Source: Candidatus Hermodarchaeota archaeon
GTDB taxonomy: Archaea; Asgardarchaeota; Lokiarchaeia; Sigyniarchaeales; SOKP01
Reading direction: 5' to 3'
Assembly: GCA_048885925.1 (NCBI GenBank)
Contig: JBHLLG010000007.1
Span: 1-64,000 of the forward strand
DNA length: 64,000 nt
In this document: positions 33,290-52,199 of the stretch, one piece after another
Position numbering within the stretch: the stretch's first letter is position 1
How the letters are laid out: each line of letters opens with the position of its first letter
Notes under the pieces: model-generated
The model's database searches: none
Seen by the model: only the letters and a program-made list of their open reading frames with translations
Told to the model about the DNA's origin: nothing
Made by a program: the position numbers and the translations under genes

Positions 33290-33306
33290 TTTTAATTACC
33301 CTCGAG

Positions 33307-33822: not shown

Positions 33823-33858
33823 CTTTTTTCTTATTATTTGAATGATTTTTTTTATTTA

Positions 33859-33932: not shown

Positions 33933-34068
33933 CATTCAATTTTCGAGAGTAAATCTCGGTGCCCTCTTCATCAACAACTGTGATGTGAGCAGCACACGAT
34001 AGTCAACAGTCAAAACAGCGAACTATCATTTCTAAGAGATTTACTACACCTTCTGGTATATCACTCAT
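33919..34068 (-). CDS. vhuU: Selenocysteine-containing hydrogenase peptide VhuU, the split C-terminus of the large subunit (absent from the ORF track)
   Basis: Manual translation MSDIPEGVVNLLEMIVRCFDC-U-LSCAAHITVVDEEGTEIYSRKLNVGLG*. In-frame TGA at 34003-34005 occupies the first ligand position of the L2 motif missing from the upstream large subunit. Confidence 0.9.
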
Positions 34069-34110
34069 TTTTTTTGTTCACTTTTTTCTATTATTTTCAA
34101 TATATTTAAT

Positions 34111-35415: not shown

Positions 35416-35419
35416 TTTA

Positions 35420-36730
35420 TTATACGCCTCCTTTTCTTGATGCTAAAGTAAATTTTTCAAAAGTGCCAATGTGATCTTTCACCTGCGATAGAATTTCTTC
35501 TTTGCTTAAGCTCACTTTAAAACCCTTAACTACTGTATTAGCAAATCGTTCTGCTTGATTAACACCCCACACTGTTTGACCATAACATCCAGTACAAGGG
35601 GCGTTAACTTTTACACATAAAGCACCGCAGCCAGCTCTAGTAACAGGTCCCATACAGATATAACCCTGTTCAATAAGACAATCCTCCATATTTGGAAGAT
35701 CTTCATAATCTCTCTTTACTCTGGTCATTGTTGATTTACTTCCAATAATTCTTGGACATGTATCGCAAACGTTTGATATTTCTGTAAAATCCGGATTTTT
35801 GCCTAAAAAGTTTAACAACGTAGATCCAATTTCTTCCGTAGATGGGGGTAAATTAGCTAAAGGTGTCTCAGGAGATCCACGTTTTTTGATTTGTTTTAAT
35901 ATATCTCCTGCTAGATCAAAACCTGCCATAAGTGGTAACCCCAAAAACAAAGTTGAAAATTCCAAAATCGACTTTTTATTACCTGAACTGATTGGAGTGA
36001 GATTTTTCACCATACTACTTAATTTATCAGCTCTTGAGTCTACTGTTTTCGCTGGTCCATAACAGCCAACACATGGTTTATTATCACTTGTACACTTTAA
36101 ATTACAACCTATACTTGTGATAGGACCAAAACATAAAGTACCTCTCATGAGTAAGCAATCATCTTTAATACTACAGTCATTGCAGAATGCGAGGTCATTC
36201 ATTGGAAATGGTTTTTGACCTAATAAAAAGGCAACAGCACTAACAATCTGTTCTGGTTTTGGAGGACAACCTGCCATATAGACGTCTACGTTAATTACTT
36301 CATCAACATTTATAATTTTATCCTGGAATTCGGGAACATGTTGAGTTGGAACTGTAGGTGTCTCATTTGTAGCAGATTCAACTTCGATAAATTTTCTTCT
36401 TTTCAATGTTTCGATATCCCATTGGTTCGCTAATCCTGCTACATTTCCATAGGTAGCACAACTACCGAATGCAATTATCAATGCACATTTTTCTCTCATC
36501 AATTTAACATTTTCCAAATCTTGTTTAGTCCTTATTGCTCCTTCGATAAATCCTACTAAGACTGATCCAGAGGCTCTAGCTTTCAATGAATCTTCTTTAA
36601 AATCAACTACAGCTGGCCAATATACAAATTCAAGTGCTGGTAGAACAGGCAACAATCCCAAATGTGCGTTCAAGAGGGATTGGTGACAGCCCCAACAGTC
36701 ACTTAGTTGCATAAAAGCTACTTTCACCAT
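35420..36730 (-). CDS. vhuG: Group 3c hydrogenase small subunit with a duplicated C-terminal Fe-S module (VhuG/MvhG)
   Basis: DCWGC, FIEGA, AFGSCA, GCPP; then two modules CxxC...CL...CxGP...GC...C...PCxGCYG. Confidence 0.9.
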   Translation of the reverse strand: MVKVAFMQLSDCWGCHQSLLNAHLGLLPVLPALEFVYWPAVVDFKEDSLKARASGSVLVGFIEGAIRTKQDLENVKLMREKCALIIAFGSCATYGNVAGLANQWDIETLKRRKFIEVESATNETPTVPTQHVPEFQDKIINVDEVINVDVYMAGCPPKPEQIVSAVAFLLGQKPFPMNDLAFCNDCSIKDDCLLMRGTLCFGPITSIGCNLKCTSDNKPCVGCYGPAKTVDSRADKLSSMVKNLTPISSGNKKSILEFSTLFLGLPLMAGFDLAGDILKQIKKRGSPETPLANLPPSTEEIGSTLLNFLGKNPDFTEISNVCDTCPRIIGSKSTMTRVKRDYEDLPNMEDCLIEQGYICMGPVTRAGCGALCVKVNAPCTGCYGQTVWGVNQAERFANTVVKGFKVSLSKEEILSQVKDHIGTFEKFTLASRKGGV

Positions 36731-37112: not shown

Positions 37113-37685
37113 TTAAAAAGAACCACATCCATCACATTTTCCATCGAGAAAAGCGGCACAATCGCTACATATATTTTCACATTTTTCTTCTTGACTTTCT
37201 TGGCTGAAAAGATTAATTGGTATATACTTAGGGGTGATAAGTTCAGACACGAATATAGTGGCAGAGTGAAGTATTCCTTTTTTATTCGTAGGTCCACAGT
37301 AATTAATATATCTGTGAAGCACATCAATATTTTGGCCTATGACTCCTAATATTAAGTTATATTGACCTGTTACCTGAGCCAGTAAAAACACACGAGGGCA
37401 ATTTTGATAGGCTTTAATTATATTTTGCACTTCATCATAATTACTCATTTCGATTAGTAAAAATAGAGATCTATATTGAAGTGTATTGATATTTGTATTC
37501 GCTTGAACCTTTAGAACTCCTGAATCCTCTAACTTCGAAATTCTCTTTGCAATACCTGTATGACTCATAGTTTCATCACCAGATTTATATATTACTTTTT
37601 CTAAGTTTGTCAAACTTTGACGCCCTTCTTTGAACAATTCTAATAAAATCTGTTTATCAATATTATCTAATTGCATAGTTTTCAT
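37113..37685 (-). CDS. Lrp/AsnC transcriptional regulator with Cys-rich C-terminal tail (copy 1)
   Basis: LDNIDKQILLEL...KRISKLEDSGV HTH; VTGQYNLI; tail CENICSDC...CDGC. Confidence 0.9.
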   Translation of the reverse strand: MKTMQLDNIDKQILLELFKEGRQSLTNLEKVIYKSGDETMSHTGIAKRISKLEDSGVLKVQANTNINTLQYRSLFLLIEMSNYDEVQNIIKAYQNCPRVFLLAQVTGQYNLILGVIGQNIDVLHRYINYCGPTNKKGILHSATIFVSELITPKYIPINLFSQESQEEKCENICSDCAAFLDGKCDGCGSF

Positions 37686-38544
37686 ATTAAAACTAAATAT
37701 AATTAATTAGATCTTAATTACCAATTTTTAAAATTTGTCGTTTATAAAAAGTTAGCTTGATAATATTTCAAAATTTTATGTACGCTTTACATCTTTCTAT
37801 TAAGATATTTTATATTAATATTTACAACTTTAATTAAATTAAACAATAAATAATTAGTTTTCATGTATATAATGCCTTATCATCATTATTGTTTTTCTAA
37901 TTAATTAAGTAAATAATAGTTTACTTATTATATTTAATAAATATTAGGGGTTTTCAAACTGAAACTTTGAATAAAAAATCGTTGAAAAATGAAACTAAAA
38001 GGTAATGGAATAGTATAATTATTTGAATTCACAAAATATAATGAATCCTTTTTTATATTAACGTTTCTAATAATATAATTATGACTTTGGATCAAATTGA
38101 CAAACAGATTCTTAAAACTTTATTTGAAAATGGTCGCGAAAGTTTAAGTTCTTTAAGTAAAATTGTATTAAAGTCGAATCAAGAAACAATGAGCCATGCA
38201 GGTATTGCAAAGAGAATTTCGAAGTTAGAGGATTCAGGAGTTCTAAAGGTTCAAGGAAATATAAGTGCTAAGAGCTTAAATTATTACATTGCGTTTATTT
38301 TAATTGAAATGAGAAATTATAATGAAGTACAAAAAATTATTGATGCTTATGCAGAATGTCCCAGAGTATTTTTACTTGCTCACGTAGCTGGTCAATATAA
38401 CTTGATCTTTGGAGTAATAGGCCAAGATATTGATGTCTTACGCAGATATATTAATTACTGCGGACCTATGAATAAAAAAGGAATACTTCACTCTGCCACT
38501 ATATTCGTGTCTGAACTTATCACCCCTAAGTATATACCAATTAA
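37213..38544. repeat. Identical inverted blocks shared by the two Lrp paralogs
   Basis: 37213-37287 is the reverse complement of 38470-38544 (75 bp); 37502-37558 is the reverse complement of 38199-38255 (57 bp). Confidence 0.9.
37951..38019 (+). promoter_or_regulatory. Dual-box promoter of Lrp copy 2
   Basis: TTTTCA-AAC-TGAAAC (37951), GTTGAA-AAA-TGAAAC (37981), 17 nt, GTATAAT (38013). Confidence 0.65.
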
Positions 38545-38644
38545 GCTTTTTAGTGGTGAAAGCAAAGAGCATAAATGTGAAAATATATGTAAAGCATGTG
38601 CTGCCTTTCTTGATGGAAAATGTAATGGATGTGGTAACTTCTAA
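38081..38644 (+). CDS. Lrp/AsnC transcriptional regulator with Cys-rich C-terminal tail (copy 2)
   Basis: Paralog of 37113-37685; tail CENICKAC...CNGC. Confidence 0.9.
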   Translation: MTLDQIDKQILKTLFENGRESLSSLSKIVLKSNQETMSHAGIAKRISKLEDSGVLKVQGNISAKSLNYYIAFILIEMRNYNEVQKIIDAYAECPRVFLLAHVAGQYNLIFGVIGQDIDVLRRYINYCGPMNKKGILHSATIFVSELITPKYIPIKLFSGESKEHKCENICKACAAFLDGKCNGCGNF

Positions 38645-38861: not shown

Positions 38862-39107
38862 ATGATGTATTTAATAAGAGACTATTTGACAGAACAAAAA
38901 TTAATCTCATTACCTCCCTCGAGTAAATTTATTTTATATCTACTGAAAAGAAATGGACCGTTAACTCAAGAAGAAATTATGAAAAGATCGCTTCTACCTA
39001 GTAGGACAGTCGTTTATTCTTTAAAAAAATTATATGATCTAAATTTTATTAGAAAAAATGTTGATAAAAGAGATAAACGAATAAGATTTTATGAAATACT
39101 TATTTAA
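38862..39107 (+). CDS. Small MarR-like winged-helix regulator
   Basis: LPPSSKFILYLLKRNGPLTQEEI...LPSRTVVYSLKKL...DKRIRFY. Confidence 0.88.
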   Translation: MMYLIRDYLTEQKLISLPPSSKFILYLLKRNGPLTQEEIMKRSLLPSRTVVYSLKKLYDLNFIRKNVDKRDKRIRFYEILI

Positions 39108-39426: not shown

Positions 39427-40104
39427 TTGAGAAAAACTAAAATTCTTTCACTATTGATTTTTTCAGCCTTACTTATAGGAATTATAGGTGTAGCTGTAGG
39501 TTATCAAGAATACATATATAGATGGGTTAATAACGGAGCAGGTGGAACTCATGGTGCATGCCATGATTCGACTAAGACTAAATCAAGTGTAAATGGAACT
39601 TTAGTATTGTCTATTAATGTAACAGGAGATTTATCCCCTTTACAACATTTTACCTTAGAGGTTGATGTTCTCAACTTTACAGAGGCTAATTTAGATCCTT
39701 ATGCAGGTAGATTTACTTTAGGTGTACCCGGATATCGAGGTGATAACGCATTATTTACATCATCAGTAGCTCATCAAACATTGAATAGAGGAGAACAAGT
39801 AGATAGTTATGGATCCTATGATCCTTCTGATAATGATAATAAATTTGATCTAATTGCCCCTAATAAAGCTGGAACATATGATCTTTATGCAGTAGCAATA
39901 GCAGGGATGAATCAAACGGACGCATCTTTCTACAATCTTACTTACGTTGAAGATTCAATTGAAATTACTGTTACAGGCTCTACTGGTACAGGTGCAGAAA
40001 CTATTTCGGGAGGAATTTTAACAATCGTTATTGGCAGCAGTGTTGCAGTAACATCTGTTTTAATATTAACAGTGAGAAAGCGAATGAAGAAAAAAGAATT
40101 GTAA
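39427..40104 (+). CDS. Exported, membrane-anchored protein with HGACH motif (putative single-Cys c-type cytochrome)
   Basis: Signal peptide, GGTHGACH (motif at 39550-39564), beta-rich domain with IAPNKAGTYDLYA, C-terminal TM and basic tail; directly upstream of ccmC. Confidence 0.7.
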   Translation: MRKTKILSLLIFSALLIGIIGVAVGYQEYIYRWVNNGAGGTHGACHDSTKTKSSVNGTLVLSINVTGDLSPLQHFTLEVDVLNFTEANLDPYAGRFTLGVPGYRGDNALFTSSVAHQTLNRGEQVDSYGSYDPSDNDNKFDLIAPNKAGTYDLYAVAIAGMNQTDASFYNLTYVEDSIEITVTGSTGTGAETISGGILTIVIGSSVAVTSVLILTVRKRMKKKEL

Positions 40105-40264
40105 ATTCAAAATACTAAATAAATATTATTTTTTTTTTATAATCTTAAATTTTAAAAGTTAAAAAAAATGTCTTAAATGTGAAAAATAGCAATACTCCTT
40201 ACAAACAAAAAGATTTGTCATTGTATTAAAATGTATCAGAATTATAATTATATAAAGCATTATC

Positions 40265-40996
40265 ATGAATATCCCAAAATTGTTACAGACTAATTTCCTT
40301 TTAATTATTTCATTAACAATTTTGATGATTAATTTTTTTCTTATTTTAATCTTGACTTCCTTTAATCTCATTGTATGGGGAAGTCCTAATCGAATAGTAT
40401 ATATCATTTTTTTTTATCATGTTTCTGGGGCTTGGCTTGCATATTTATCATATGGTCTAAGTTTACTATTTCATATTCTCTATTTGAAGAAACGAGAAAT
40501 AAACTGGAATCGGTTGGGCACCAATAGCATAATAGTTGGAGTGTTTTTTACAGCATTTACATTAATTACTGGATCTTTATGGTACAATGCTACTTCTGGA
40601 GATTATAACAATATTTACTGGCAATGGAGTGATGGTAGACAAACTATGACTTTAATATTGCTTCTTTGTTATTTAGCATATTTAATTTTTAGGAGTATGA
40701 TTGAAGATAAAGAAAAAAGAGCAAAATTATCTTCAATTTTAGGTATTACTTTATTTCCTACAATACCCTTAAGTTATTTCTCGGCAATCATATTTACAAG
40801 CTTGCATCCCCTAATTAATCCAACTCCTGGAGAGCCAGGTAATATTTATTGGGACCCCGTGAAATTATTCATGTTAATTTTTAATTTGATTGGAATAACC
40901 ATCTTATTTTTTTATGTTATTCAAAGATTAGGAGAATTAGATAAAGCAAAAGAAAAACTAGATAAAACTATACAAAAAAGGTTGATAGAGGAGTAA
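40265..40996 (+). CDS. ccmC: Cytochrome c maturation heme chaperone CcmC
   Basis: IIFFYHVSGAW (His), ITGSLW...YWQWSDGRQT (WWD-like), SLHP (His). Confidence 0.9.
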   Translation: MNIPKLLQTNFLLIISLTILMINFFLILILTSFNLIVWGSPNRIVYIIFFYHVSGAWLAYLSYGLSLLFHILYLKKREINWNRLGTNSIIVGVFFTAFTLITGSLWYNATSGDYNNIYWQWSDGRQTMTLILLLCYLAYLIFRSMIEDKEKRAKLSSILGITLFPTIPLSYFSAIIFTSLHPLINPTPGEPGNIYWDPVKLFMLIFNLIGITILFFYVIQRLGELDKAKEKLDKTIQKRLIEE

Positions 40997-41001
40997 TTTA
41001 A

Positions 41002-41154
41002 ATGGCACTACAATATTTTGATCAAGATTTAATAACAATAACAATTAGTTATATTTTATTTTGGGTAGTTATTATAATTCTAATCTTATATCCTAAACTT
41101 AGAATAAGAAAAACTTTGAAAAGAATAAAAAAGTTGGAGAAAAATTTGAAGTAA
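41002..41154 (+). CDS. ccmD: CcmD-like small membrane protein (absent from the ORF track)
   Basis: Manual translation MALQYFDQDLITITISYILFWVVIIILILYPKLRIRKTLKRIKKLEKNLK* (50 aa): one TM with Tyr, basic tail, located between ccmC and ccmE. Confidence 0.75.
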   Translation: MALQYFDQDLITITISYILFWVVIIILILYPKLRIRKTLKRIKKLEKNLK

Positions 41155-41158
41155 GTAG

Positions 41159-41506
41159 ATGATGAATATGAAAAAAACAAAAATTATTGCAATCACAGGA
41201 ATTATTATATCAATTATTGTTATAATTACGTTGCTTACATCAACTGCACGTCCTTATCTCACAGTCTCTCAAGTTGCCTTGAACCCTTCCAAATATGACA
41301 ATAAAGAGATTCAAGTTATAGGTGTTGTACAAGGATTTGCTGGAAGTAATTTTAATTTAACTGAAAATGGATATAGTATTTATATAGATATAAATAGTTT
41401 AACTCCTTCAACTGATATGGAAAATGGAATTCAAGTTGTTGTAAAAGGAACATTTAGTTCATCTCTGGTTTTAATCGCAAACCAGATTCTTACACAGTGT
41501 AGTTAG
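41159..41506 (+). CDS. ccmE: Heme chaperone CcmE, Cys-type, ending CS-stop
   Basis: N-terminal TM, PYLTVSQV, IQVIGVV, GIQVVVKG, LIANQILTQCS*. Confidence 0.85.
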   Translation: MMNMKKTKIIAITGIIISIIVIITLLTSTARPYLTVSQVALNPSKYDNKEIQVIGVVQGFAGSNFNLTENGYSIYIDINSLTPSTDMENGIQVVVKGTFSSSLVLIANQILTQCS

Positions 41507-41513
41507 ATCTTAT

Positions 41514-42239
41514 TTAATCATACAAAAGAGCACCTGAAGTTAATGCTATAATTGAGCTCATTAGAATTATATGTGCACCAAAAAATAGTACTTCGTAATA
41601 TAGATTTGATATTAATTCTCCTTCTAAAATTTTTATATTTATCGATATTATGGGAGTAATAATTGGTAGAATTAAAGGAAAAAATAAAATTGGTAAAATA
41701 AAGGATTTATTTTTAACATACATCGAAAAGGCAGAAACAAAGCTCCCACATATAGATAAATCAAATGTGGGTAATAATATTCCAAGACTTATATAAATTA
41801 ATAACTGATTCGTATTAAAATTGCTAATCGATGGTGCTGATATAAAAAAACTGAAAAGAAATAAAATAATCTCAACGAAACTCAATAAGATAAAGCAAAA
41901 AAAGGTTTTACTAATAAGAATTAAGTTTGCTGATACGGGGGAAGAAATAAGTCCTCCTAATGTTCCAGAATCTTTCTCCTTTACAAAGAGTTTAGTCATA
42001 ATATAAACAAGTGTAAAAAAAATTATAAGCCAGTTTTCAATAACAAAAATTTCCATAGGCATATTCTGATATTGAGTTCCGAAATTATAAACTGATGAAA
42101 ATATGAAGATTGAAATTATATCAAAAAGAAAAATTGAAAATAAATCATTAATTTGTCGAAGTTCTGATTTAAGATCTTTAAATAATATTACTTTCAGCAA
42201 CTTTAACTTTGATTTGAATTTTATTTTCTCATTTTTCAA
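41514..42239 (-). CDS. ccmB: Heme exporter permease CcmB
   Basis: KDLKSELR, FVKEKDSGTL, ILPILFFPLILP. Confidence 0.88.
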   Translation of the reverse strand: MKNEKIKFKSKLKLLKVILFKDLKSELRQINDLFSIFLFDIISIFIFSSVYNFGTQYQNMPMEIFVIENWLIIFFTLVYIMTKLFVKEKDSGTLGGLISSPVSANLILISKTFFCFILLSFVEIILFLFSFFISAPSISNFNTNQLLIYISLGILLPTFDLSICGSFVSAFSMYVKNKSFILPILFFPLILPIITPIISINIKILEGELISNLYYEVLFFGAHIILMSSIIALTSGALLYD

Positions 42240-42251
42240 TAAATATTCCCC

Positions 42252-42965
42252 CTAAAAATATGACTTAATTTCATATTCATTTAATTCCTCACGTGAAAAG
42301 GTTTTACTGATTCTTCCTTTTTTTAAAATGATTAAATCATCACAAAGTTGTTGGAATACATCAATTTTATGAGTTGTAAGAATTATTGATATATTTTTAT
42401 CATTTTTTAATTCTCTAAAAAAATTAATTAACATTTGGGTTGCATTGTAATCTAAACCCGAAAATGGCTCATCCAAGAAGAGGATTGGTGGATCATGTAT
42501 TAACACTCTAATTAATTCTACTTTTTGTTTCATTCCATGAGATAAAATTCTAACAGGTTCGTTGATCCAATCTGTTAAGTTGAATTTATTGCAATAATGC
42601 TTAATTTTAGTCTCAAGATTCTTTTTCTCAAAATTCAAATGCAAATTAGCATAATATTTTAAATTTTCAAAAATAGTTAATTCTTGAAATAGAAAAGACT
42701 CATCAGTATTAATTCCAATATTTTGTTTTATAATGTCAGAATTATCCTCATAATTCATTCCATTTAGTATAATTTCACCTAATGTTGGTTTGAGCAATCC
42801 CGATAAAATCTTAATTAATGTTGTTTTACCTGCTCCATTTGCCCCCGCAATTCCAAAAATCGTATTTTCTCTAATTTTAAAAGAAATTTTTCTTAACGCA
42901 AAAAAATATCCAAATTGTTTTGCAACATTATTGCAAGTTATTATGGTGTTATTTGATATGAACAT
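42252..42965 (-). CDS. ccmA: Heme exporter ATPase CcmA
   Basis: GANGAGKTT, LSHGMKQK, LDEPFSGLD, TTH; directly upstream of ccmB. Confidence 0.88.
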   Translation of the reverse strand: MFISNNTIITCNNVAKQFGYFFALRKISFKIRENTIFGIAGANGAGKTTLIKILSGLLKPTLGEIILNGMNYEDNSDIIKQNIGINTDESFLFQELTIFENLKYYANLHLNFEKKNLETKIKHYCNKFNLTDWINEPVRILSHGMKQKVELIRVLIHDPPILFLDEPFSGLDYNATQMLINFFRELKNDKNISIILTTHKIDVFQQLCDDLIILKKGRISKTFSREELNEYEIKSYF

Positions 42966-43121
42966 GATCTCAATTGTAAGAGCTTAAACTATTTATCTAT
43001 TGACTATTAATAAGTGTTTAATTATTCAAAACTTTGTTTTAATATATTTATTAAGGTAAAAAATTATAAATTCTTAAAATGGAATAAAATAAAATTGAAA
43101 AATAATATATTGAATAGATTT

Positions 43122-44840
43122 TTAGGCCTCAATTATTTTTTTCGTTGGAAAAAAAGTGATAAGAATTGAAGGAATTATTCCTATTAATAGTAGTATGAAT
43201 CCTGGAATGAAAAAAATATCTTGATAATTCGAATTCATTAAAAATCCAGCAAGGATTAAGGAGATCCCTGCATGAATTATTGTTTTTGAATTCAATCTGA
43301 AAAAGTATTTTACTCCCTTTTTCATATTGAAATTTTTTATCAATTTGAATAGGGATGAAAATAACGATATCAAATAAATAAATAAAACAGGATTTATCCA
43401 TATGTTTGAGGTAATTACAAGTATAAACGAAAGTACTGATTGAATTGAAAATCCTATAAGTATAACTAATCCTATCCATTTAATCTCGAAATATTCCCAT
43501 AAGGAGCAAAAAGTAAGCGATAACGCTAAACCAGTAGCTAATATTAATGTTGTAATTATATAATAATCTATTTCAATTAAAATAATATCTAAAGGAAGAA
43601 AATTTGAGAGGATATAGGTAAAAGGGGGAACAAATAAGCCAAAGGTACATACAAAAGCTAAACCAAACAAAAATAAATAACTAAAATAATCAAATAGTAA
43701 CTTTTTATTTCGATATTCCTCCATCAAATAATCTAGGACAATATAAATAACATAAAGGGAAAAAATGATTAATATAAGACCTAAAACTACTACCCATATA
43801 ACTAGCTCTGCACCTTCAGCAAACGCATGAGCCGAACTTAACCCTCCTCCCCTTGTAATCAATGTTGAAAAAACGATTGAAGAAAAAATTAAACCCACAT
43901 TAATGTTAATCAATTTAGGATTTTTTTTTTTAAAAATCATAGTATGAAAGAAAGCTGTTATGAAAAACCACGGAATAAGTGAAACAGTCTCAACAGGATC
44001 CCACCCCCAATATCTACCCCAAGGAGTCAAGGCAATTTTAGCCCAATATGCACCTAATCCAATACCTAAAGAGAGAACTAACCATCCAAATTTTAACGAA
44101 AAAGTATAGAAATCCTGTTGATAGGTTCCTAATAATTTTTCTTTCCGAGTAATTGTTTCAGCAATTGTAATTGTAAAAGGAATCAAGAAAATAGCATACG
44201 CAATAAATGTAAAAAATGGATGCCATATCATAAATGGAGATATTAATAATGGATTTAACCCTAAACCATTAGGGAAATCAGGGGGTGAATTAATTTGAAA
44301 TGGATTCAATGAAAATAAAACAATCAAAAATATAATTGAAATAATTATTGAAATGATAACAGAACGTATAAAAACTAAATCTTCTCTATTTTGATTCTTA
44401 AGTCTATATAAACTAATTATTATTGAATTAAAAACCATCCATGTCATAATCGAACCATCTTCTCCTGCCCAGATTGCAACAATTTTATATATTAATGAAA
44501 GTGTAGAATTGCTATAATTCATAACATATACTATTTCATAAATATTATTAAGAAAACTATACATCATTAATATAAACATAAATATTGTTAAATACACGTT
44601 AAAGAGAGAAAAGATATAATAATTTTGACGTTTAAAAACTATATAAACAAAATCAATAATCAATACGAAAATAAGAACCAATATAACATAATTACCTAAG
44701 GTTGATATGAGAAGAACTCTAAAATTATATTCAATCAGATTTAAGACTAATGGTAGAATAAAGATTAATCCTAAAATTATTCCAATGTTAATAATAATAG
44801 ACTTTTTTATTGACAATTCATCAAACTTCATATTTTTCAC
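43122..44840 (-). CDS. ccmF: Cytochrome c heme lyase CcmF
   Basis: WAGEDGS, GLGLNPLL, WHP, WGRYWGWDPVET (WWD), FFH, TRGG...SAHAF. Confidence 0.93.
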   Translation of the reverse strand: MKNMKFDELSIKKSIIINIGIILGLIFILPLVLNLIEYNFRVLLISTLGNYVILVLIFVLIIDFVYIVFKRQNYYIFSLFNVYLTIFMFILMMYSFLNNIYEIVYVMNYSNSTLSLIYKIVAIWAGEDGSIMTWMVFNSIIISLYRLKNQNREDLVFIRSVIISIIISIIFLIVLFSLNPFQINSPPDFPNGLGLNPLLISPFMIWHPFFTFIAYAIFLIPFTITIAETITRKEKLLGTYQQDFYTFSLKFGWLVLSLGIGLGAYWAKIALTPWGRYWGWDPVETVSLIPWFFITAFFHTMIFKKKNPKLININVGLIFSSIVFSTLITRGGGLSSAHAFAEGAELVIWVVVLGLILIIFSLYVIYIVLDYLMEEYRNKKLLFDYFSYLFLFGLAFVCTFGLFVPPFTYILSNFLPLDIILIEIDYYIITTLILATGLALSLTFCSLWEYFEIKWIGLVILIGFSIQSVLSFILVITSNIWINPVLFIYLISLFSSLFKLIKNFNMKKGVKYFFRLNSKTIIHAGISLILAGFLMNSNYQDIFFIPGFILLLIGIIPSILITFFPTKKIIEA

Positions 44841-44929
44841 CTAAAATGAAAGAATATAAAACTTTAAATAAAGATTTTTGAAATATTTCATGACCTAATT
44901 AAAAATTCTTTAAAGATTAAAAAAAAAGT

Positions 44930-47797
44930 TTAAGGAATAAATCTCTTCTTCTTCGAAGTTCTTACTATTAATACTATTCCCACAACTATAATACCGATTG
45001 TACTAGAATATATTATTAACTCATTTGTTTCTATTATTATCAAAGGATTAATGTTAGTTGATTTATCTGTAACCATAATGCTCTCAAGATAAGAATTCCA
45101 ATTATTATTAATGTCCTTTGCATGAATAGTAAAGAATAATTCTCCTGTATTACTTGGAGTCCAATTAATGTATTCCCAAGTATCTCCAAGTATATTCACC
45201 ATAGTATGGTTAAAACCTTCAAATTCAATGAAAACTTCACTGACACCAGAAAAATCGATAAGTTGTACTTGAATAGATACAGATTGCCCTAGAGTAATAG
45301 ATTCTTCTGATTTCACCAGATTATAAAAATTTGGACCTGTCATATCTTTAATAGTAATGTTATCCTTTAATGAACCAATATTATTAATAGAATCAAATGC
45401 AAAGATCTCATAGATTTTTAGACCTGTATTATTTGAAGTCCATATATTGCTTTGCCAGGTAAATCCTCCACTGAATGTCATTGTGTAGTTAATCTCTTCA
45501 ATTTCTAATAATACTAGAGTTATTGGAGAAAAATCAGTAACATCTACTTGAATTATTGGCGTATTTCCTAATTCTAATGGATCAGTAATTTCAATTAAAT
45601 TTGTTAATTTTGGACCAATTGTATCGATAACAGTAAGGTTATTATTTATGGAATTATAATTCTCATTTGAATCTTTGGCGTAAATAGAATAATTTTTTAT
45701 TCCAACAGATTGAGGAATCCAAGTATTATATTGCCAAATTGTACCTCCTATATTTGTCATCGTATAATTGCTCCCATCAATTTCTATAGAAACCAGTGTG
45801 ATAATTGAAAAATCTGTAGCATTAATTTGAATAATTGCTGTTTGTCCTATTTCTAATGGATCATAGTTTTCGTATAAGTTTGATAACTTTGGTGCTATAG
45901 TATCGATTGTTTCAATAAATCCACTTGTACTATTCCAAATATTGGAATTATCTTTAATATAAATGGTATATGTATGCATATCGACTATACTGGGCTTCCA
46001 AGTATCATATAACCACGTATTTCCTCCAATATAAGACATTGAATGATTCACACCTTCAAATTCAATTTTAACCTGGTTAATACCTGAAAAGTCTTTAGCA
46101 TCAATCGAAATCATAACTGAATTACCCAATTCGAGAGGATCACTACTTTCTGTTAAATTTTCAAAAATGGGCGGAGTTGTATCTAAAACCAATATATTAT
46201 CACTAATTTGATTCCAATTATTTAAAGAATCATTCGCAAGAATTTTAAACACTTTTATTCCAGTTGAAATTGGTGTCCACGTATATTCGTATCTAATAGC
46301 TCCAACTTTCACCATTGTATGATTTATTCCTCCAATTTCGAAAAATACTTTACTTACTCCATCAGCATCTTCAATATCAACTTGAATAGTTTCGGGTTGA
46401 CCTAGTTCTACGGATTCAGCACTTTTTGATAAGTTTTGAATTATTGGTCCTGATGATAGAATAACTTCAATAGAACCTATAGTCATGTTTAAATTATTGT
46501 TATTATCAATCATGTAAATAGAATAATTATAAATCCCTATAGATGCTGGCTTCCACTGAGACCATCTCCACGTATTACTTCCAATAAAAATCATAGTGTG
46601 ATTAACATTATTATATTCAAGAAATACATCTTTTACTCCAGAGCCTGGCGAATCATAAACCGTAATTGTTATAGTTTCGTTATTCCCTAATGGGAGAGGA
46701 TCAGCACTTTCAATTAAAAAATCATATTTTGGTGCTATTGTGTCAATTACAGTAATATCACTACTAATAGAGTTCCAATTTCCTTCGATATCATTAGCAT
46801 AAATTGTATAAGATTTTAACCCCATACTTATTGGTATCCAACTATTGTATTCCCAGGTTGAACTACCAATTTTCGTCATTGTATTATTAACATTATTGAG
46901 TTCTATTAGAACGGAACTAATTCCTGATAAGTCAGAAACATTAATTTGAATAGTTTCTGTTTGACCTAGTTCTAAAGGATCAGCACTTTCAATTAAATTT
47001 GAGAATGCTGGAACTGTAGTATCAATTACATTAATATTTCCAATAATCGAATTCCAACTTCCATCAGTATCATTTGCATAAATTTTGTAACTTTTGATAC
47101 CAATTGTATTTGGAGTCCAATTAAATTCATATGTATTGCTTCCAATGTTTGACATTGTATAATTATTACCTTCTAACTCAATCAAAACAGTATCGACACT
47201 CGTTTCAGCGTCTATTACATCTATTTGAAAGCTTTCTTGCCCTCCTAGTTCTAGGGGATCACTGCTCTCTAGAAGATTATTAAATTGAGGTGGTAAGTTT
47301 TGTACTTGAACATTTAGTATTAAATCTCCATGCGTAAAATATGAAGCAGAACCCCCTGCTCTGTATATTGCATCAGCGTGGAGAGTATAAGTTTGTTCAA
47401 CAGAGGGAGCAGTAACTTGAAAGTTTAGAACTATAGAATTACCAGAACTATCTATGGAAACTGATTGTTGAGTTGTAACAAAAATAAAATCTTTATTATC
47501 AGCTCTGCCTGGACTACCACTTGGAAATCCTGCCTCAATATTGTTTCCCTGTGCTTCTGTAAAGCTTATTATTTGAATGCTAACTGTAAAAGTTTCGCTC
47601 GGATTGATAGTAGTTCCCGAACTTGATAAAAGCGTGATATATCCTGTGGTACTCTGTGTAATATTTCCATGACAACTACCATGACCTTCACCAGAAAAAT
47701 CATTAAAATCTTCTGTTCTAGCTAAAGCAAAACCTAGAATTAAAAAAACCAGTATAATTGTGATTAAACCAGATGACATTTTTTTATTTATTCTCAT
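44930..47797 (-). CDS. Surface protein: HGSCH head domain on eight ~94-aa Ig-like repeats with a C-terminal TM anchor
   Basis: Signal peptide, GEGHGSCH (motif at 47669-47683), VTAPSVEQTYTLHA, eight repeats of ESxDPLELG-like...YTIYAND...WN, TM plus KKKR. Confidence 0.8.
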   Translation of the reverse strand: MRINKKMSSGLITIILVFLILGFALARTEDFNDFSGEGHGSCHGNITQSTTGYITLLSSSGTTINPSETFTVSIQIISFTEAQGNNIEAGFPSGSPGRADNKDFIFVTTQQSVSIDSSGNSIVLNFQVTAPSVEQTYTLHADAIYRAGGSASYFTHGDLILNVQVQNLPPQFNNLLESSDPLELGGQESFQIDVIDAETSVDTVLIELEGNNYTMSNIGSNTYEFNWTPNTIGIKSYKIYANDTDGSWNSIIGNINVIDTTVPAFSNLIESADPLELGQTETIQINVSDLSGISSVLIELNNVNNTMTKIGSSTWEYNSWIPISMGLKSYTIYANDIEGNWNSISSDITVIDTIAPKYDFLIESADPLPLGNNETITITVYDSPGSGVKDVFLEYNNVNHTMIFIGSNTWRWSQWKPASIGIYNYSIYMIDNNNNLNMTIGSIEVILSSGPIIQNLSKSAESVELGQPETIQVDIEDADGVSKVFFEIGGINHTMVKVGAIRYEYTWTPISTGIKVFKILANDSLNNWNQISDNILVLDTTPPIFENLTESSDPLELGNSVMISIDAKDFSGINQVKIEFEGVNHSMSYIGGNTWLYDTWKPSIVDMHTYTIYIKDNSNIWNSTSGFIETIDTIAPKLSNLYENYDPLEIGQTAIIQINATDFSIITLVSIEIDGSNYTMTNIGGTIWQYNTWIPQSVGIKNYSIYAKDSNENYNSINNNLTVIDTIGPKLTNLIEITDPLELGNTPIIQVDVTDFSPITLVLLEIEEINYTMTFSGGFTWQSNIWTSNNTGLKIYEIFAFDSINNIGSLKDNITIKDMTGPNFYNLVKSEESITLGQSVSIQVQLIDFSGVSEVFIEFEGFNHTMVNILGDTWEYINWTPSNTGELFFTIHAKDINNNWNSYLESIMVTDKSTNINPLIIIETNELIIYSSTIGIIVVGIVLIVRTSKKKRFIP

Positions 47798-47952
47798 GTA
47801 AATCCCCTTTTTTTAAACGTTAAACATTAAAATTCTGAATTCTAAATGGAAATGTTTTTAAACGTTTAAATAAATTCAATTTTTTTGAATTTAAATTACT
47901 CAAATATATTATATATTTGATTAAATTAAAGAAATCTAAAATAATTTATAAG

Positions 47953-48039
47953 ATTACCTTAAACTGGTTATTTTAAACAATCGATTGATATTGTGTTTCA
48001 TTTTCTGACTGTTTTTCTTTTTCAGTTTCAAATTGAAAT
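47953..48039 (-). promoter_or_regulatory. Dual-box promoter of HxxCH protein 2
   Basis: + strand GTTTCA-AAT-TGAAAT (48025), GTTTCA-TTT-TCTGAC (47995), 17 nt, TTTAAA (47972-47977); minus-strand core ATTGTTTAAAATAACCAGTTTAAGGTAAT. Confidence 0.72.
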
Positions 48040-48383
48040 ATCCAAATCTACTTGAATTTTACTTATTTTAGTCAAGTCAAATTAAATGCTATTTTATAAG
48101 ATTTTTCAACTTTTCTATTCCAAATTTTATTTTTATATATGTAGTTTTTTTAAAAAATATAATTCAAATATTGCACGAATTGTCCCTAAAAACAGCTTAA
48201 CTTTTTTGTTTAGGAAACAAAATAAAAATTTCAATAATTAAAAAGCTCATTGTAGAAATTAGGTGAAATTATTGCTATAATATTTTAAAAAGGCTTTGAT
48301 TTTTAAAATATATTAATCAAGTTTATAAAAGTATAAAAATATAACAAAAAGCAAAAGAATTCATAAAATATTGGATAAGAACC

Positions 48384-49226
48384 ATGAAAAAGAAAATTCT
48401 TTTATTTTTAATTATTGTCAGCTTAATGCCAATTTTAGTAATCTCTTTCGGAACAAGTAGACCTGGTTATGGTGATACTCATGATGTTTGCCATGATACA
48501 GCGGGATATACAATTGATACTACTGCTTTAGAAGAGATTCCAGCAATCATATCATCAAATGTTATTTTTAATATTACGGCAACTGGATCTAATTTATTTG
48601 TTCAAGCAATATCTGGTGCTAAAGATAACGATCTCTTTGTAATATTACCAACAACAGATAGAATTAATGAAAGTTCTATTCATGATTTAGATCCAACTCC
48701 TAATTCAATTAAAGTTATATTTAACGTTACTACACCCTCAGAGGATGGTTATTACACAATTTTCATTATTGCAGGGAATGACGCAAGTGGACAAATAAAC
48801 TTCGCTTATCAACAGATCTATATTAATGTTGGGGGAGTTACAGCACCACGCCCTGTTTTTAATATTTTTGATCATTTTGGAATGTTTCTTGGTTTACCTG
48901 CATTAATTTTTCTGACACTAGGGACGATATTAGTATTAGTAAATGAAAGTAAATTTGTTAAAGTTCATGGGATTTTAGCAGGATCTTCTTGGATTTTAAC
49001 ATTAATAAATGTAGTAACTCTAGTAACAAAGAATCCGGCTATCTGGGTTGCATTTCCTTTAACTACACATTGGACTCACATTTTTTTAGGAGGTTTTGGA
49101 TTACTTACCGGATTATTTAGTATGTTTTTTGGAATTGCAGCAGAACGTAAACCAGCAAAAATAACGGGATATATTACATTGATTTGCTGGTGGGGAGCTT
49201 TCTTTTTTGGTTTTTTATTTATATAA
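48384..49226 (+). CDS. Exported HDVCH domain fused to a 4-TM cytochrome b561-like domain
   Basis: Signal peptide, GDTHDVCH (motif at 48480-48494), VTTPSEDGYYTIFI; TM histidines in FDHFG, KVHGIL, WTHIFLG. Confidence 0.68.
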   Translation: MKKKILLFLIIVSLMPILVISFGTSRPGYGDTHDVCHDTAGYTIDTTALEEIPAIISSNVIFNITATGSNLFVQAISGAKDNDLFVILPTTDRINESSIHDLDPTPNSIKVIFNVTTPSEDGYYTIFIIAGNDASGQINFAYQQIYINVGGVTAPRPVFNIFDHFGMFLGLPALIFLTLGTILVLVNESKFVKVHGILAGSSWILTLINVVTLVTKNPAIWVAFPLTTHWTHIFLGGFGLLTGLFSMFFGIAAERKPAKITGYITLICWWGAFFFGFLFI

Positions 49227-49315: not shown

Positions 49316-50731
49316 TTGGATTCAATTAAAAAATTTATTTCTCCTTATCATGTAAGTACTAATCCATATGAACTAGAATCTGCTTCAGCAGACCTCACAT
49401 CATTACCCTCTTATCATTATAAGTTTAAGAAAAAATATCTTGCAAGTTACATTATTCGTCCAGCAGATACTGATGAACTTTCTTTGACCATAAAAAAGTG
49501 TAGAGAATTAGAGATTCCAGTTACAATTAGAGCTGCTGGTACTTCTTGCTTTTCTTCAGCTACACCTTCTAAAGGTGGTGTTATTATAGATGTGCGTAGA
49601 ATAAATAAAATTCTTGAAATAGATACTAAAAAAATGACTGTCAAAGTTGGAAGTGGAATTTCTTGGTTAAATTTAATAGAAGCACTTGCAGATCATGGAC
49701 TTGAACCAAAAGTTTTTCCAACAAGCTTTAAGACTTCGTGTGTTTGTGGTTTTATAGCTACTCCAGGAAAAGCAGGGATTGGGGTCTTAAAATATGGTCC
49801 AATGAAAGATTCAATTATTTCACTAACCATGGTACGCCCTGATGGTTCAATAATTAAGGTTTCAAGAGATTCAAACCAAGACGTTTCGCTGGATGATATT
49901 GTTGGAACTTATGGAATATATGGTGCTATTACAGATGTTGAATTATCAATAACTACACTTAAAACATCTTTAGAAATAATTGGTTATGGTTTTGATTCAA
50001 TTAATCAAGCTTTTAACTTTTATTCAACATTAAAGGATCAACTTCCAAATGTACCGTTTTTCCTTTCTATTTCAGGTAGAGATTTTGAAAAATATTCTCA
50101 TGTAAGTTTCCCTGAGCGTGAATGGTTAGTTTGGGCAGTTTTTTATGATGATCCTGAGGAAACCTCTAAAAGCATATCGGCTGTTAAAAATTTTGCTTCA
50201 AAGATGAATGCTTTCGAAGTTGAAAGTTCTTACTTAAAGGAAAAATGGCGAGATATTAGTGATGCTGAAGTATCGATAGGATTATCCGCGAGAAATTTAA
50301 TATTTCAGGAATATTGGATTTCTGATGAAAGATTACAAGTTTTTATAGAACAATATATTAAACAGAAAAGACGGTACAAATTTCCTACAGCCACCTATTC
50401 TATCTCAGGAGAAAAAGGATGGACTAGAGTTAAGATTTTTGGTTTATCCGATATTAGTAAACCACGTGAATTTTTTGCTGTTAAGGCATTTTTACATGAT
50501 TTATCAAAATATGCCTTTAATCAAGGTGATCGACTCTATACTATAGGAATTGTTAATACTTTCTATTTACATAAATATAAACCTGAAGAAGTGGCAAAGA
50601 GAAAACAATTAAAGGATGAATTGGATCCCCAACATTTATTCAATTCATACAGAATAATTGAAGCAAAGATGAAATTCTGGAGAATATCTTTACTATTTAA
50701 TACAGCGAAATTTTTATATAAATTATTTTAA
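49316..50731 (+). CDS. FAD-binding oxidoreductase (GlcD/D-lactate dehydrogenase, VAO family)
   Basis: IIRP...IPVTIRAAGTS, GGVIID, VGTYGIYGAIT, C-terminal LDPQHLFN. Confidence 0.88.
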   Translation: MDSIKKFISPYHVSTNPYELESASADLTSLPSYHYKFKKKYLASYIIRPADTDELSLTIKKCRELEIPVTIRAAGTSCFSSATPSKGGVIIDVRRINKILEIDTKKMTVKVGSGISWLNLIEALADHGLEPKVFPTSFKTSCVCGFIATPGKAGIGVLKYGPMKDSIISLTMVRPDGSIIKVSRDSNQDVSLDDIVGTYGIYGAITDVELSITTLKTSLEIIGYGFDSINQAFNFYSTLKDQLPNVPFFLSISGRDFEKYSHVSFPEREWLVWAVFYDDPEETSKSISAVKNFASKMNAFEVESSYLKEKWRDISDAEVSIGLSARNLIFQEYWISDERLQVFIEQYIKQKRRYKFPTATYSISGEKGWTRVKIFGLSDISKPREFFAVKAFLHDLSKYAFNQGDRLYTIGIVNTFYLHKYKPEEVAKRKQLKDELDPQHLFNSYRIIEAKMKFWRISLLFNTAKFLYKLF

Positions 50732-50858: not shown

Positions 50859-52199
50859 ATGAATGAAAGTGAAGAAGCATCAGATTTAAAAGATGTAATT
50901 ACTTCAGGTCCTCCAGTTGCAGGATTAGTTGCTCCTTCTAGAGAAAACCTCATTAAACCCTCAACAAAGTTGAAGGATAAATACTCATATGAGCGTTGTA
51001 CCCATTGTGGATATTGTCGTCATGTTTGTAAGGTGTATAATGTATCTTGGAGTGAAACGGATTATGCTGGTGGTCGTAATAGAATAATTAAAGCATTAGA
51101 TCGCAAAGATGTAAAATTTGATCGTGAAGAAATCATTCCTTCTGTTTTTCGTTGTATGTTATGTGGAAATTGCCAAGAAGTTTGTCCAGTTGGAGTTGAA
51201 ACTTTGAGTGTTTTTCAACACTTACGCAAACAAGTTGTTAAAAAGGGAGCTATACCCGCAAAGTTAAAAATCCTTAAAAATTCGATATTAGAAAATAACA
51301 ATCCCTTCCTTGAACAACATGTAGATCGATTTAATTGGTGTGAATCATGTGAAGAAGGCGCAAGAGCATATTCACGCGCAAAAGATAAGTTTGATGCCTT
51401 AAAAGAAGAAAAACCTTATACTGTGGGTTATTTTGTCGGTTGCACTTCTTCTTACAGGAATAAAGAATTAGTTTCATCTACGAGTAAAGTTTTAGAGAAA
51501 TTGGGTATTGAGTTTGTTGTTTTTCCCGATGAACAATGTTGTGGTTCAGTTTTATTTCGAACCGGATTAGAAAATGCCGCTCTTAAACTTGTAAAACATA
51601 ACTATAAAATGATCCGTAAAAGTGGTGTAAAAGAAGTCGTATTTTCATGTTCTGGTTGCTTCTCGACATTTAATCTCGAATACTCACGATTAATCGATCA
51701 TCAACTTGAATTTAACCTTTACCATCTTACTCAATTCGTTTTGAAAACTGTGAAAGAAAAGAATCTTAAAATTAGATATACAAAACGTTCAAAAGATGAC
51801 CCATTACTTATTACATACCATGATCCCTGTCACTTAGGTAGATATTGTGGAGTTTATGAAGAACCCCGAGAACTAATAAAAATGATTGAAGGAGTAAAGC
51901 TTTTCGAGATGAAACATAACCGAAATATGTCTTGGTGTTGTGGTGCTGGAGGTGGTGTGAAAGCGCTTTATGGTGATATCGCAGTTGAGGTAGGTAGGGA
52001 TAGATTAAATGAAACTCGTGCTTGTATGATACGAATTCGTGAGGATCGTCTTAAAGAAGCGTTAGAAACCAGTGCCGAGGTTCTTGTCAGTTCTTGTGTT
52101 TTTTGTAAGAATAATCTATTCGAAGTAGCAAATGAAGATAATTCTCCAATAAAAGTTATGGACATTTCTCAACTTTTAGTCGATTGTGAATTTTATTAA
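50859..52199 (+). CDS. Fe-S oxidoreductase, GlpC/GlcF/HdrD-like (two [4Fe-4S] motifs + two CCG domains)
   Basis: CTHCGYCRHVC, CMLCGNCQEVCP, YFVGC, EQCCG, CSGC, YHDPCHLGR, CCGAGGG, SCVFC. Confidence 0.92.
   Translation: MNESEEASDLKDVITSGPPVAGLVAPSRENLIKPSTKLKDKYSYERCTHCGYCRHVCKVYNVSWSETDYAGGRNRIIKALDRKDVKFDREEIIPSVFRCMLCGNCQEVCPVGVETLSVFQHLRKQVVKKGAIPAKLKILKNSILENNNPFLEQHVDRFNWCESCEEGARAYSRAKDKFDALKEEKPYTVGYFVGCTSSYRNKELVSSTSKVLEKLGIEFVVFPDEQCCGSVLFRTGLENAALKLVKHNYKMIRKSGVKEVVFSCSGCFSTFNLEYSRLIDHQLEFNLYHLTQFVLKTVKEKNLKIRYTKRSKDDPLLITYHDPCHLGRYCGVYEEPRELIKMIEGVKLFEMKHNRNMSWCCGAGGGVKALYGDIAVEVGRDRLNETRACMIRIREDRLKEALETSAEVLVSSCVFCKNNLFEVANEDNSPIKVMDISQLLVDCEFY

Follow-up and report, generated by a model that had tools for sequence, protein, structure and literature searches.

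The window analysed here, a stretch of 64,000 nucleotides that forms bases 1-64000 of contig C7 in an Asgard archaeal assembly, encodes three predicted exported proteins of 225, 955 and 280 amino acids (aa), each with an HxxCH motif, around the genes of a cytochrome c maturation (Ccm) pathway of the System I type. These proteins are probably single-thioether cytochromes c that are matured by a modified archaeal System I and feed a transmembrane electron conduit. The covalent haem, its single thioether, the b-haem of the membrane part, the substrate and the direction in which electrons flow are putative. c-Type cytochromes and System I are known kinds; the new element would be the presence of one-cysteine HxxCH clients with a dedicated archaeal Ccm, which is well supported but unproven.

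The source genome (G000) is a 3.9 Mb assembly with 29% G+C, 95% completeness and 4.4% contamination. It belongs to a family, f1, that comprises 134 genomes including G000 itself, and f31 denotes a second Asgard family. The nearest protein relatives all come from metagenome-assembled genomes under Promethearchaeota, Lokiarchaeota or other Asgard labels. In a contiguity check against sediment metagenomes (three runs), contigs of a second study cover the region at ~98-99% identity, and the pieces span adjoining genes. The data sets listed for the region are DNA from sediment metagenomes, with no RNA set among them. From 37.1 to 52.2 kb, two Lrp-like regulators are followed on the plus strand by the 225-aa gene, ccmC, a 50-aa ccmD and ccmE; the middle of the locus lies on the minus strand and contains ccmB, ccmA, ccmF and the 955-aa gene; and the plus strand ends the locus with the 280-aa gene, a FAD_binding_4 flavoprotein gene and the gene of an Fe-S protein with two CCG domains.

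The HxxCH proteins and the adjoining Ccm genes

The three proteins are listed below with the evidence for each, where ORF is open reading frame and Ig is immunoglobulin.

39427..40104, plus strand: 225-aa protein with an N-terminal signal/anchor, GGTHGACH, an Ig-like beta-sandwich and a C-terminal membrane anchor; candidate single-cysteine cytochrome c (ORF, motif scan, alignment)
44930-47797, minus strand: 955-aa protein with an N-terminal GEGHGSCH domain, an extended series of Ig-like (Big_7) repeats and an anchor at the C-terminus (ORF, Pfam)
48384-49226, plus strand: 280-aa protein that joins a GDTHDVCH domain to four membrane helices; candidate transmembrane cytochrome with both c-type and b-type haem (ORF, alignments)

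A sequence-only reading of this DNA had placed three exported HxxCH proteins around ccmC-D-E, ccmB-A and ccmF, and the ORFs, motifs and flanking positions were found as described. The motifs of the 225-, 955- and 280-aa proteins, GGTHGACH (residues 39-46), GEGHGSCH (36-43) and GDTHDVCH (30-37), respectively, each come directly after a hydrophobic N-terminal segment (15-residue Kyte-Doolittle mean 2.9-3.2). Judged from this hydropathy rather than from a dedicated signal-peptide predictor, all three proteins are predicted to be exported to the outer face. The motif Cys had been described as the sole Cys of the ectodomain, and this agrees with whole-protein counts of 1, 1 and 2 for the 225-, 955- and 280-aa proteins, the second Cys of the latter lying in its last membrane helix. 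The common beta-rich domain is likewise borne out by an alignment of all three proteins, in which the C, H, D-N, F, P and Y columns, including the xAPxxxxxY strand, are invariant. The pattern G..H..CH occurs three times in the 5,841 genome ORFs of at least 60 aa, compared with ~0.26 expected from composition, and the occurrences are the three proteins themselves, within 9 kb. The looser pattern H..CH is present in 24 genome ORFs, and most of the other 21 show, by eye, H-x-x-C-H-x-x-R/K contexts typical of cytoplasmic CCG-domain proteins.

The sole curated model touched by the domain is NF041895 (choice-of-anchor V). The 955-aa protein matches it at 22.8 bits with hmmscan and at 28.5 bits in the genome search, the 225- and 280-aa proteins do not match it, and the best relative, the CxxCH-bearing P0222, reaches 39.6 bits, all below the cut-off of 42. 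Pfam searches with E up to 10 gave no family for the 225-aa or 280-aa protein. A sequence profile search of the PDB returned one chance-level match, an AA10 lytic polysaccharide monooxygenase (E 0.12), and a feature search of the ESM Atlas returned unnamed archaeal clusters and 'Reelin domain' clusters at 0.81-0.89, which is below the 0.9 level and a lead only. The AlphaFold2 (AF2) model of the 225-aa protein is confident for the sandwich at residues 50-185 and of low confidence for the motif loop. In the membrane part of the 280-aa protein, His164, His195, His232 and Met247 are invariant and His229 is at least 90% conserved. A complex prediction of this membrane part with two haems and the CCG protein scored 0.00 and had no controls, and no inference is drawn from it. 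The name 'Cytochrome oxidase subunit I profile domain' on a 280-type relative was treated as an automatic label and not used. In related loci, the 225-aa gene stands in one or two copies before ccmC, and the orthologs of the 955-aa protein, which range from 800 to 1,520 aa, are encoded beside ccmF.

The Ccm genes are as follows.

40265..40996, plus strand: ccmC (Pfam Cytochrom_C_asm 61.6 bits; TIGR01191 2.2e-19)
41002..41154, plus strand: ccmD-like, 50 aa, single helix (Pfam CcmD 26.1 bits; cut-off 25.6)
41159..41506, plus strand: ccmE variant ending ...LTQCS-stop (Pfam CcmE 29.2 bits; cut-off 24.6)
41514..42239, minus strand: ccmB (Pfam CcmB 41.8 bits)
42252..42965, minus strand: ccmA, ABC ATPase (Pfam ABC_tran; TIGR01189 112 bits, below the 131.6 cut-off; assigned by position)
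43122..44840, minus strand: ccmF, 572 aa (Pfam 85.5 bits)

The CcmA-F set of System I is present, with Pfam matches above cut-off for CcmB, CcmC, CcmD, CcmE and CcmF; the genome has one CcmC and one CcmF, and the six ccm genes are conserved across related loci. CcmF aligns with Thermus CcmF (6ZMQ) through WHP..., WGRYWGWDPVE (the WWD motif), FFHT and SAHAFAEG. The alignment covers P-His1, TM-His1 and P-His2, and thus WWD and the three conserved His are kept, while the C-terminal His lies outside it. CcmD is the top match in all five f1 orthologs tested (E <= 0.01), and the f31 loci have, between ccmC and ccmE, a single-helix ORF of 44-46 aa without a Pfam match. The CcmD-like gene is notable in view of the reported absence of CcmD from archaea (PMC9084895).

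The CcmE of the window keeps the haem-binding Cys of the H/CxxxY motif and lacks its Tyr, so it falls outside that motif definition. The tail (T/V/I)-Q-C-S-stop is found in 6 of 7 and in 14 of 14 f1 loci, two sets that overlap, the exception being G189 with the ending YCCDRSTGV. The CcmE of f31 has C-P-S-K/R-Y in 5 of 5 loci. This comparison shows by computation that CcmE, as read from its sequence, co-varies with the client motif: QCS-stop accompanies HxxCH, and CxxxY accompanies CxxCH. No solved relative of CcmE was found when CcmE was searched alone.

The sequence-only reading had seen no exported CxxCH protein, ccmG or ccmH in the window, and this extends to the genome as a whole. CcmH (PF03918) and DsbD/CcdA (PF02683) have no match in the 95%-complete genome, and CcmG/DsbE (TIGR00385) has only one weak thioredoxin-like match genome-wide (27 bits; cut-off 123). 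As an argument for unusual clients, the missing CcmG and CcmH nevertheless prove weak, because the absence of CcmH is usual in archaea and ccmG/ccdA are dispensable in Methanosarcina (PMC9084895). A DsbD_TM match is present in all five f31 genomes. Two related genomes with one-Cys motifs, G226 and G228, have a membrane-anchored CPYC thioredoxin (CcmG-like) and CcdA in the cluster, the thioredoxin and CcdA of G226 lying between ccmF and the 280-type gene. The proposal that a single Cys would make disulfide reduction unnecessary is accordingly upheld in part: the pathway is mostly lost, but these two relatives keep it, and the demand for it appears relaxed rather than simply abolished.

CxxCH occurs in 36 ORFs of the genome, none of which qualifies as a credible cytochrome with export. 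Only one, on contig C95, shows a clear signal peptide, and its motif lies in a Cys-rich tail behind a membrane helix; three short hydrophobic CxxCH ORFs are overlapped by longer ORFs on the opposite strand. The Ccm set thus appears to have no other plausible client in this genome.

Motif variation and co-occurrence with ccm

Among 21 aligned relatives of the 225-type, C45 and H46 are invariant and H42 nearly so. In the 280-type, the C-H pair is invariant, and the upstream His is invariant in 12 aligned sequences with a spacing of Hx2CH or Hx4CH. A profile of the ectodomain only, searched against 1.84 billion representatives, matched 890 proteins at E <= 0.001. These fall into two classes, namely proteins matched from the motif onward near the N-terminus and large proteins that contain many copies of the sandwich only; the sandwich is therefore taken as a common Ig-like module to which the haem-like site is an N-terminal addition. 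The motif was tallied in 255 domain-bearing proteins, a redundant set of mostly close relatives, by scoring the nearest upstream Cys or His. Hx2-6CH accounts for 222 proteins, Cx1-4CH for 15, CH only for 10 and no CH for 8, as follows.

Hx2CH: 160 of 255
Hx4CH: 41 of 255
Hx3CH: 18 of 255
Hx5CH or Hx6CH: 3 of 255
Cx1CH: 7 of 255
Cx2CH: 5 of 255
Cx4CH: 3 of 255
CH only: 10 of 255
No CH: 8 of 255 (five repeat proteins and three with C-x-H or C-x-x-H)

The conserved core of the predicted site is the C-H pair, with a frequent upstream His at a spacing of 2 to 6 residues that is absent in some members, and a variable Gly. The GxxHxxCH signature first described therefore holds for its invariant C-H and frequent His, but not for a fixed His spacing or a conserved Gly.

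The domain search covered 399 genomes of the phylum. In f31, weak domain matches were found in ORFs of ~400 aa located a few kb (~4 kb) from ccmF. In three loci examined, this ORF is an ortholog of the 280-aa protein, with the common sandwich, the same His pattern in four helices and the same flavoprotein and CCG genes after it. At the aligned motif position, the f31 280-type orthologs read CSTCH, CSDCH or CSSVCH, and in the f31 locus L004 a 457-aa anchored protein with many CxxCH motifs adjoins the 280-type ortholog. Short C-terminally anchored relatives with CxxCH also exist, such as P0222 and P0266. A quick tree, built from the columns after the motif only (99 rows, 133 columns) and with many forks left without a clear order, recovers the CxxCH proteins of f31 and the 280-type proteins with HxxCH as sister groups (SH-aLRT 92). 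The tree requires at least 11 switches of the upstream residue, of which the starred branches force at least two. Together with the tally, it indicates that C-H is fixed and that the upstream position has moved among Cys, His and nothing more than once. The motifs of the window are on this computational evidence shown to be homologous, at the level of aligned residues, to canonical CxxCH sites, and the HxxCH of the window proteins would belong to the XXXCH class of c-type motif variants.

The domain also occurs in other architectures. In P0200 (436 aa) and P0217 (815 aa), an HxxCH domain, with or without Ig repeats, is joined in one chain to one membrane helix and a full HdrD-like Fe-S/CCG protein. 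In other Asgard lineages (P0218, P0246, L007 of G319 and L009 of G052), the same N-terminal domain heads very long surface proteins with LanC-like repeats (Pfam LANC_like), and the motif in these proteins is CxCH or xCH, preceded by W-R-P.

The expected link between the domain and ccm was examined with a domain profile and CcmF searches over the 133 other f1 genomes, which gave 24 genomes with both, 105 with neither and 4 exceptions.

Domain yes, CcmF yes: 24 f1 genomes, always on a single contig
Domain no, CcmF no: 105 f1 genomes
Domain yes, CcmF no: 2 f1 genomes (G232, G243)
Domain no, CcmF yes: 2 f1 genomes (G213, G229)

Three of the four exceptions are explained by a contig break or a search miss. 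G232 has a 225-type gene with ccmCDEBA reaching a contig end, and in G213 and G229 a fused-length open frame of the 280-type, overlooked by the first profile, adjoins ccmF; G243 remains. The cluster is present in 27 of the 134 f1 genomes (G000 and 26 with a CcmF match), and its gene order is kept in the 8 f1 loci examined. Among 17 loci found through 280-type patterns, a set that overlaps in genomes with the G-coded loci, 14 have the full ccm set and order, two are cut by contig ends and one is transmembrane-only.

A search of f1 with the membrane part only, excluding the window, gave 26 orthologs of at least 60% identity. Twenty-four of them are open frames of 291-358 aa, of which 23 lie in CcmF-positive genomes and the 24th in G232. 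The other two are short (136 and 197 aa) and belong to G194 and G267, neither of which has a CcmF or domain match. In G194, a 127-aa transmembrane-only protein is followed by the same flavoprotein and CCG genes, and a separate CcmF search of this genome was empty. At the level of gene content, computation shows that the domain and ccm are linked and co-occur, and that the domain appears to be lost where ccm is absent.

Two further loci contain related genes. Just past the end of the window (G000:C7:65300-68800; L041:1316-4763), a transmembrane-only paralog (~50% identity) is followed by paralogs of the flavoprotein and the CCG protein, with no haem domain. A divergent cluster in G228:C58 (L045:6149-14360) has the motifs C-G-H-D or x-CH, and its haem-domain genes are followed by separate membrane proteins of 420-460 aa and HdrB-like CCG proteins. 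This cluster also encodes CcdA and two thioredoxins, one of them with CPYC.

Proposed mechanism and alternative explanations

Two predicted electron-transfer partners follow the 280-aa gene.

49316..50731, plus strand: FAD_binding_4 flavoprotein, GlcD/D-lactate dehydrogenase-like (Pfam, NCBIfam)
50859..52199, plus strand: Fe-S protein with two [4Fe-4S] motifs and two CCG domains, HdrD/GlpC/TfrB/TmcB-like (Pfam, NCBIfam; synteny conserved)

The flavoprotein gene is always the next one after the 280-type gene in f1 and f31. The layout is read as an electron conduit because the haem domain is fused to a membrane bundle or a CCG protein and the flavoprotein/Fe-S pair comes next, and the downstream genes suggest a route from a cytoplasmic 2-hydroxyacid-type dehydrogenase to the cell surface. 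Against the TmcB, HmcF and DsrK models, the CCG protein scores 48-91 bits, far below the cut-offs of 400-750, and the 280-aa membrane part has no family match. By analogy, the cluster may work like the Tmc, Hmc and Dsr complexes without being a member of these families.

In the proposed mechanism, the three proteins would represent a new beta-sandwich class of c-type cytochromes. Haem would be held covalently by the single Cys of the invariant C-H pair, whose His would serve as the proximal iron ligand, and the adjoining archaeal-type System I (CcmABCDEF) would perform the attachment. The first Cys of an ancestral CXnCH may have been replaced by His, or lost, in this lineage; in parallel, CcmE would have lost its C-terminal Tyr and tail (...QCS-stop), and most genomes would have lost the thiol-reducing CcmG/CcdA. 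The cytoplasmic GlcD-like flavoprotein and the HdrD-like Fe-S/CCG protein would deliver electrons to the four-helix part of the 280-aa protein, which probably has b-type haem on the invariant His and Met. From there, electrons would pass to the outer c-type domain of the same protein, which would hand them on to the 225-aa protein, a small anchored cytochrome, and to the 955-aa protein, whose haem domain would be placed at the tip of a stalk of Ig repeats.

In E. coli, XXXCH substrates are trapped as a CcmE-haem-cytochrome adduct (PMC3268396). The clients of the present system all lack the first Cys, and therefore this lineage would have to release haem from CcmE by some other means. An adaptation that permits haem release to one-Cys clients would most obviously be sought in CcmE itself, whose Tyr and tail are consistently lost. 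The upstream His could serve in recognition, as a ligand or as a second point of attachment. The Asgard origin assumed in the sequence-only reading is borne out. The original proposal of Ccm-dependent one-Cys haem proteins gains from the CxxCH orthologs, the co-occurrence with ccm, the loss of the domain in genomes without ccm, and the haem-synthesis cluster, ccmG and ccdA of G226, while covalent haem attachment keeps its putative status.

Several observations speak against this explanation. One-cysteine cytochromes are very poor substrates of the E. coli Ccm (PMC3268396). The motif loop has a predicted local distance difference test (pLDDT) score of <50 in the AF2 models of the 225-aa and 280-aa proteins, and Foldseek gave generic Ig, MG or PapD-like sandwiches and no cytochrome fold. 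The 225-aa model matched antibody variable domains only, with a template-modelling (TM) score of ~0.25 when the anchors are included; the 280-aa model matched MG, PapD or MSP-like sandwiches; cytochrome f, DOMON and NEAT were absent from the matches; and the membrane helices matched nothing. The alignments of 225-type relatives and the f31 comparison also show no Met or His beyond the motif that is conserved as a distal ligand. The loss of the thiol pathway is not universal, as 7 of 28 ccm-bearing f1 genomes have a DsbD_TM match (5 over cut-off). The co-occurring genomes are kin, and their counts are thus not independent and form a pattern rather than a statistical test. Finally, porphobilinogen synthase (HemB, PF00490) is absent from this genome and from 133 of the 134 f1 genomes, which leaves the haem supply unexplained. 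HemB is likewise missing in all five f31 genomes tested, and since these have canonical multihaem CxxCH proteins, its absence is set aside as non-specific. Haem must be imported or made by an unknown route, and Asgard genomes that have Ccm and lack HemB may be haem auxotrophs or users of such a route.

G226 is the sole genome of the 134 in f1 with hemB, and it has a full cluster for the siroheme route (G226:C2:46000-55600; L040:1-9583). This cluster contains hemA, hemL, hemB, hemC, cobA-hemD, ahbA, an ahbB fusion and two AhbC/D-like radical SAM genes, and lies ~5 kb from the regulators of the HxxCH-ccm cluster. A DOMON/CbsA-like haem-b protein (L040:17719-18858) is encoded between the haem-synthesis and HxxCH-ccm clusters.

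Among the alternatives, the same c-type cytochromes with a chemically active upstream His are rather unlikely. This His would form a second covalent bond to the other haem vinyl or act as the sixth iron ligand, and would so compensate for the loss of either the Cys or the CcmE Tyr. His130 of bacterial CcmE and His117 of cyanobacterial GlbN bond covalently to a haem vinyl. In the present family, the His takes the place of Cys at the same position, its spacing of 2 to 6 residues varies as in CXnCH sites, and it is retained by 222 of 255 proteins, as well as by each of the three paralog lines found in this genome; in addition, no other conserved ligand candidate was seen, and the CcmE Tyr is lost in the same lineage. 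However, neither His nor Cys is present within nine residues upstream in 10 of the 255 proteins, and also in G189, G051 and G052, so the site would work without an upstream His. The variable spacing and the Gly-rich linkers also fit a loosely constrained residue. A more extended form of this view regards HxxCH as a new haem attachment site that combines the Cys thioether with a permanent His-vinyl bond, a chemistry that is transient in bacterial CcmE, with a tail-less and Tyr-less CcmE that co-evolved to deliver haem to such a site. In this view, surface cytochromes, one of them stalked, would allow Loki-type Asgard archaea, as haem-scavenging relatives of the eukaryotic ancestor, to pass electrons directly to partner cells or minerals; this, too, is rather unlikely.

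It is quite improbable that H-x-x-C-H is the loop of an Ig-like surface domain that binds Cu, Zn or Fe in non-haem form and that its genes adjoin ccm by coincidence. Soft metals are well bound by Cys and His, the generic sandwich fold resembles that of many metal-handling periplasmic proteins, and the genome has no haem synthesis. Such a function is nevertheless difficult to reconcile with orthologs that have canonical CxxCH in a multihaem context, with the joint gain and loss of the domain and ccm, with a Ccm set that would otherwise be clientless, and with the haem-synthesis cluster at the G226 locus.

The lack of HemB in 133 of 134 f1 genomes also invites the view that these are surface haem-capture proteins of a haem auxotroph, which bind haem reversibly for scavenging and do not carry electrons. 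Known haem receptors use Ig-like sandwiches with a conserved Tyr, the present domain has an Ig-like sandwich fold as well, and the 955-aa protein places it far from the cell. On the other hand, Ccm exports and attaches haem rather than taking it up, the domain forms one chain with a His-rich membrane bundle or, in other members, with a cytoplasmic Fe-S/CCG protein, and the flavoprotein and Fe-S dehydrogenase pair always comes after it, which makes haem capture very improbable. Least credible are decayed relics, that is, former cytochromes that lack the first Cys, bind no haem and stand beside a Ccm set in the course of being lost: the non-canonical motif, the truncated CcmE, the loss of CcmG/CcdA in most genomes and the missing haem synthesis would fit, but C-H is invariant, the six ccm genes are intact in more than 24 genomes with 30-50% protein sequence divergence, the CcmF catalytic motifs are kept, the truncated CcmE tail is conserved letter for letter, and genomes without ccm have also lost the domain cleanly.

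Neighbouring genes and relation to known systems

Two regulator genes precede the cluster.

37113..37685, minus strand: Lrp/AsnC-like regulator with a C-terminal four-Cys tail (CxxxCxxC...CxxC) (weak NCBIfam Lrp/AsnC/LysM matches)
38081..38644, plus strand: second Lrp/AsnC-like regulator, paralog of the first (ORF, NCBIfam; synteny conserved)

An ortholog of the first regulator is present at the cluster edge in most related loci, and its product may regulate the cluster. Between the second regulator and the 225-aa gene, an 81-aa ORF (38862-39107) resembles, by eye, a small winged-helix DNA-binding protein. Just upstream of the regulators, the minus strand (32411-36730) encodes an HdrB-like (CCG) protein, an HdrC-like (2x[4Fe-4S]) protein and proteins like the large and small subunits of NiFe hydrogenase, which form an Mvh/Hdr-type set. 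Beyond the cluster, the 661-aa product of 53002-54987 combines leucine-rich repeats with an N-terminus that is HEAT-like.

On the current view, System I requires the two cysteines of its clients. If single-thioether maturation is correct, a natural Ccm for XXXCH clients with an altered CcmE would provide a ready-made experiment on how haem leaves CcmE and on the role of the first Cys. Surveys that count CxxCH score this genome as zero, and relatives that have only such clients would be overlooked as well. Loki-type Asgard archaea are known as syntrophs, and an outward electron path in these organisms would bear on how they dispose of electrons. Moreover, the occurrence of the cluster in lineages without haem synthesis, in HxxCH and CxxCH forms alike, raises a testable question on the haem supply in sediments.

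In a limited search library, no paper was found that joins 'HXXCH' with 'heme', and the papers found on XXXCH or a single thioether describe only eukaryotic or engineered cases or SfmD. The ccm example of the FESNov paper is a bacterial class.

Several known systems share features with the cluster. Cytochrome f is a c-type cytochrome built as a beta-sandwich, and its haem site is close to the N-terminus of the mature protein. In contrast to the window proteins, it has CxxCH, and it does not appear among the Foldseek matches of their models. Like the Tmc, Hmc and DsrMKJOP complexes of sulfate reducers, the cluster would connect a cytochrome c on the outer face, through a haem-b protein in the membrane, with a CCG Fe-S subunit in the cytoplasm; unlike them, the predicted c-type and membrane parts are fused in the 280-aa protein, the partner is a GlcD-like flavoprotein and the membrane part matches no known family. 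SfmD (PMC8179489) is a prokaryotic protein that has one Cys-vinyl link and His ligands, as predicted here, whereas it is a cytoplasmic enzyme with an HxnHxxxC motif and an unrelated fold and is matured with no Ccm. The mitochondrial cytochromes c and c1 of Euglenozoa, with (A/F)XXCH, form one thioether through the Cys beside the ligand His (PMC8262978), which is the arrangement predicted for the HxxCH proteins. However, the euglenozoan proteins are class I helical cytochromes that depend on a kinetoplastid-specific enzyme, whereas the present ones are predicted Ig-like beta-sandwiches of an archaeon served by System I.

With respect to maturation, the Desulfovibrio-type Ccm (Goddard et al. 2010, cited in PMC9084895) is similarly reduced, without CcmH/CcmG and with a Cys-type CcmE, but it matures CxxCH clients and keeps the CxxxY Tyr. 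System I of Methanosarcina acetivorans (PMC9084895) has CcmA, CcmB, CcmC, CcmE and CcmF as in the window, lacks CcmH/I, uses Cys rather than His in CcmE, and does not require ccmG/ccdA. In contrast to that system, in which ccmF is split and the clients are CxxCH proteins, the window has a single ccmF, a CcmD-like gene, a CcmE that ends in QCS-stop without the Tyr of CxxxY, and HxxCH proteins as its predicted clients.

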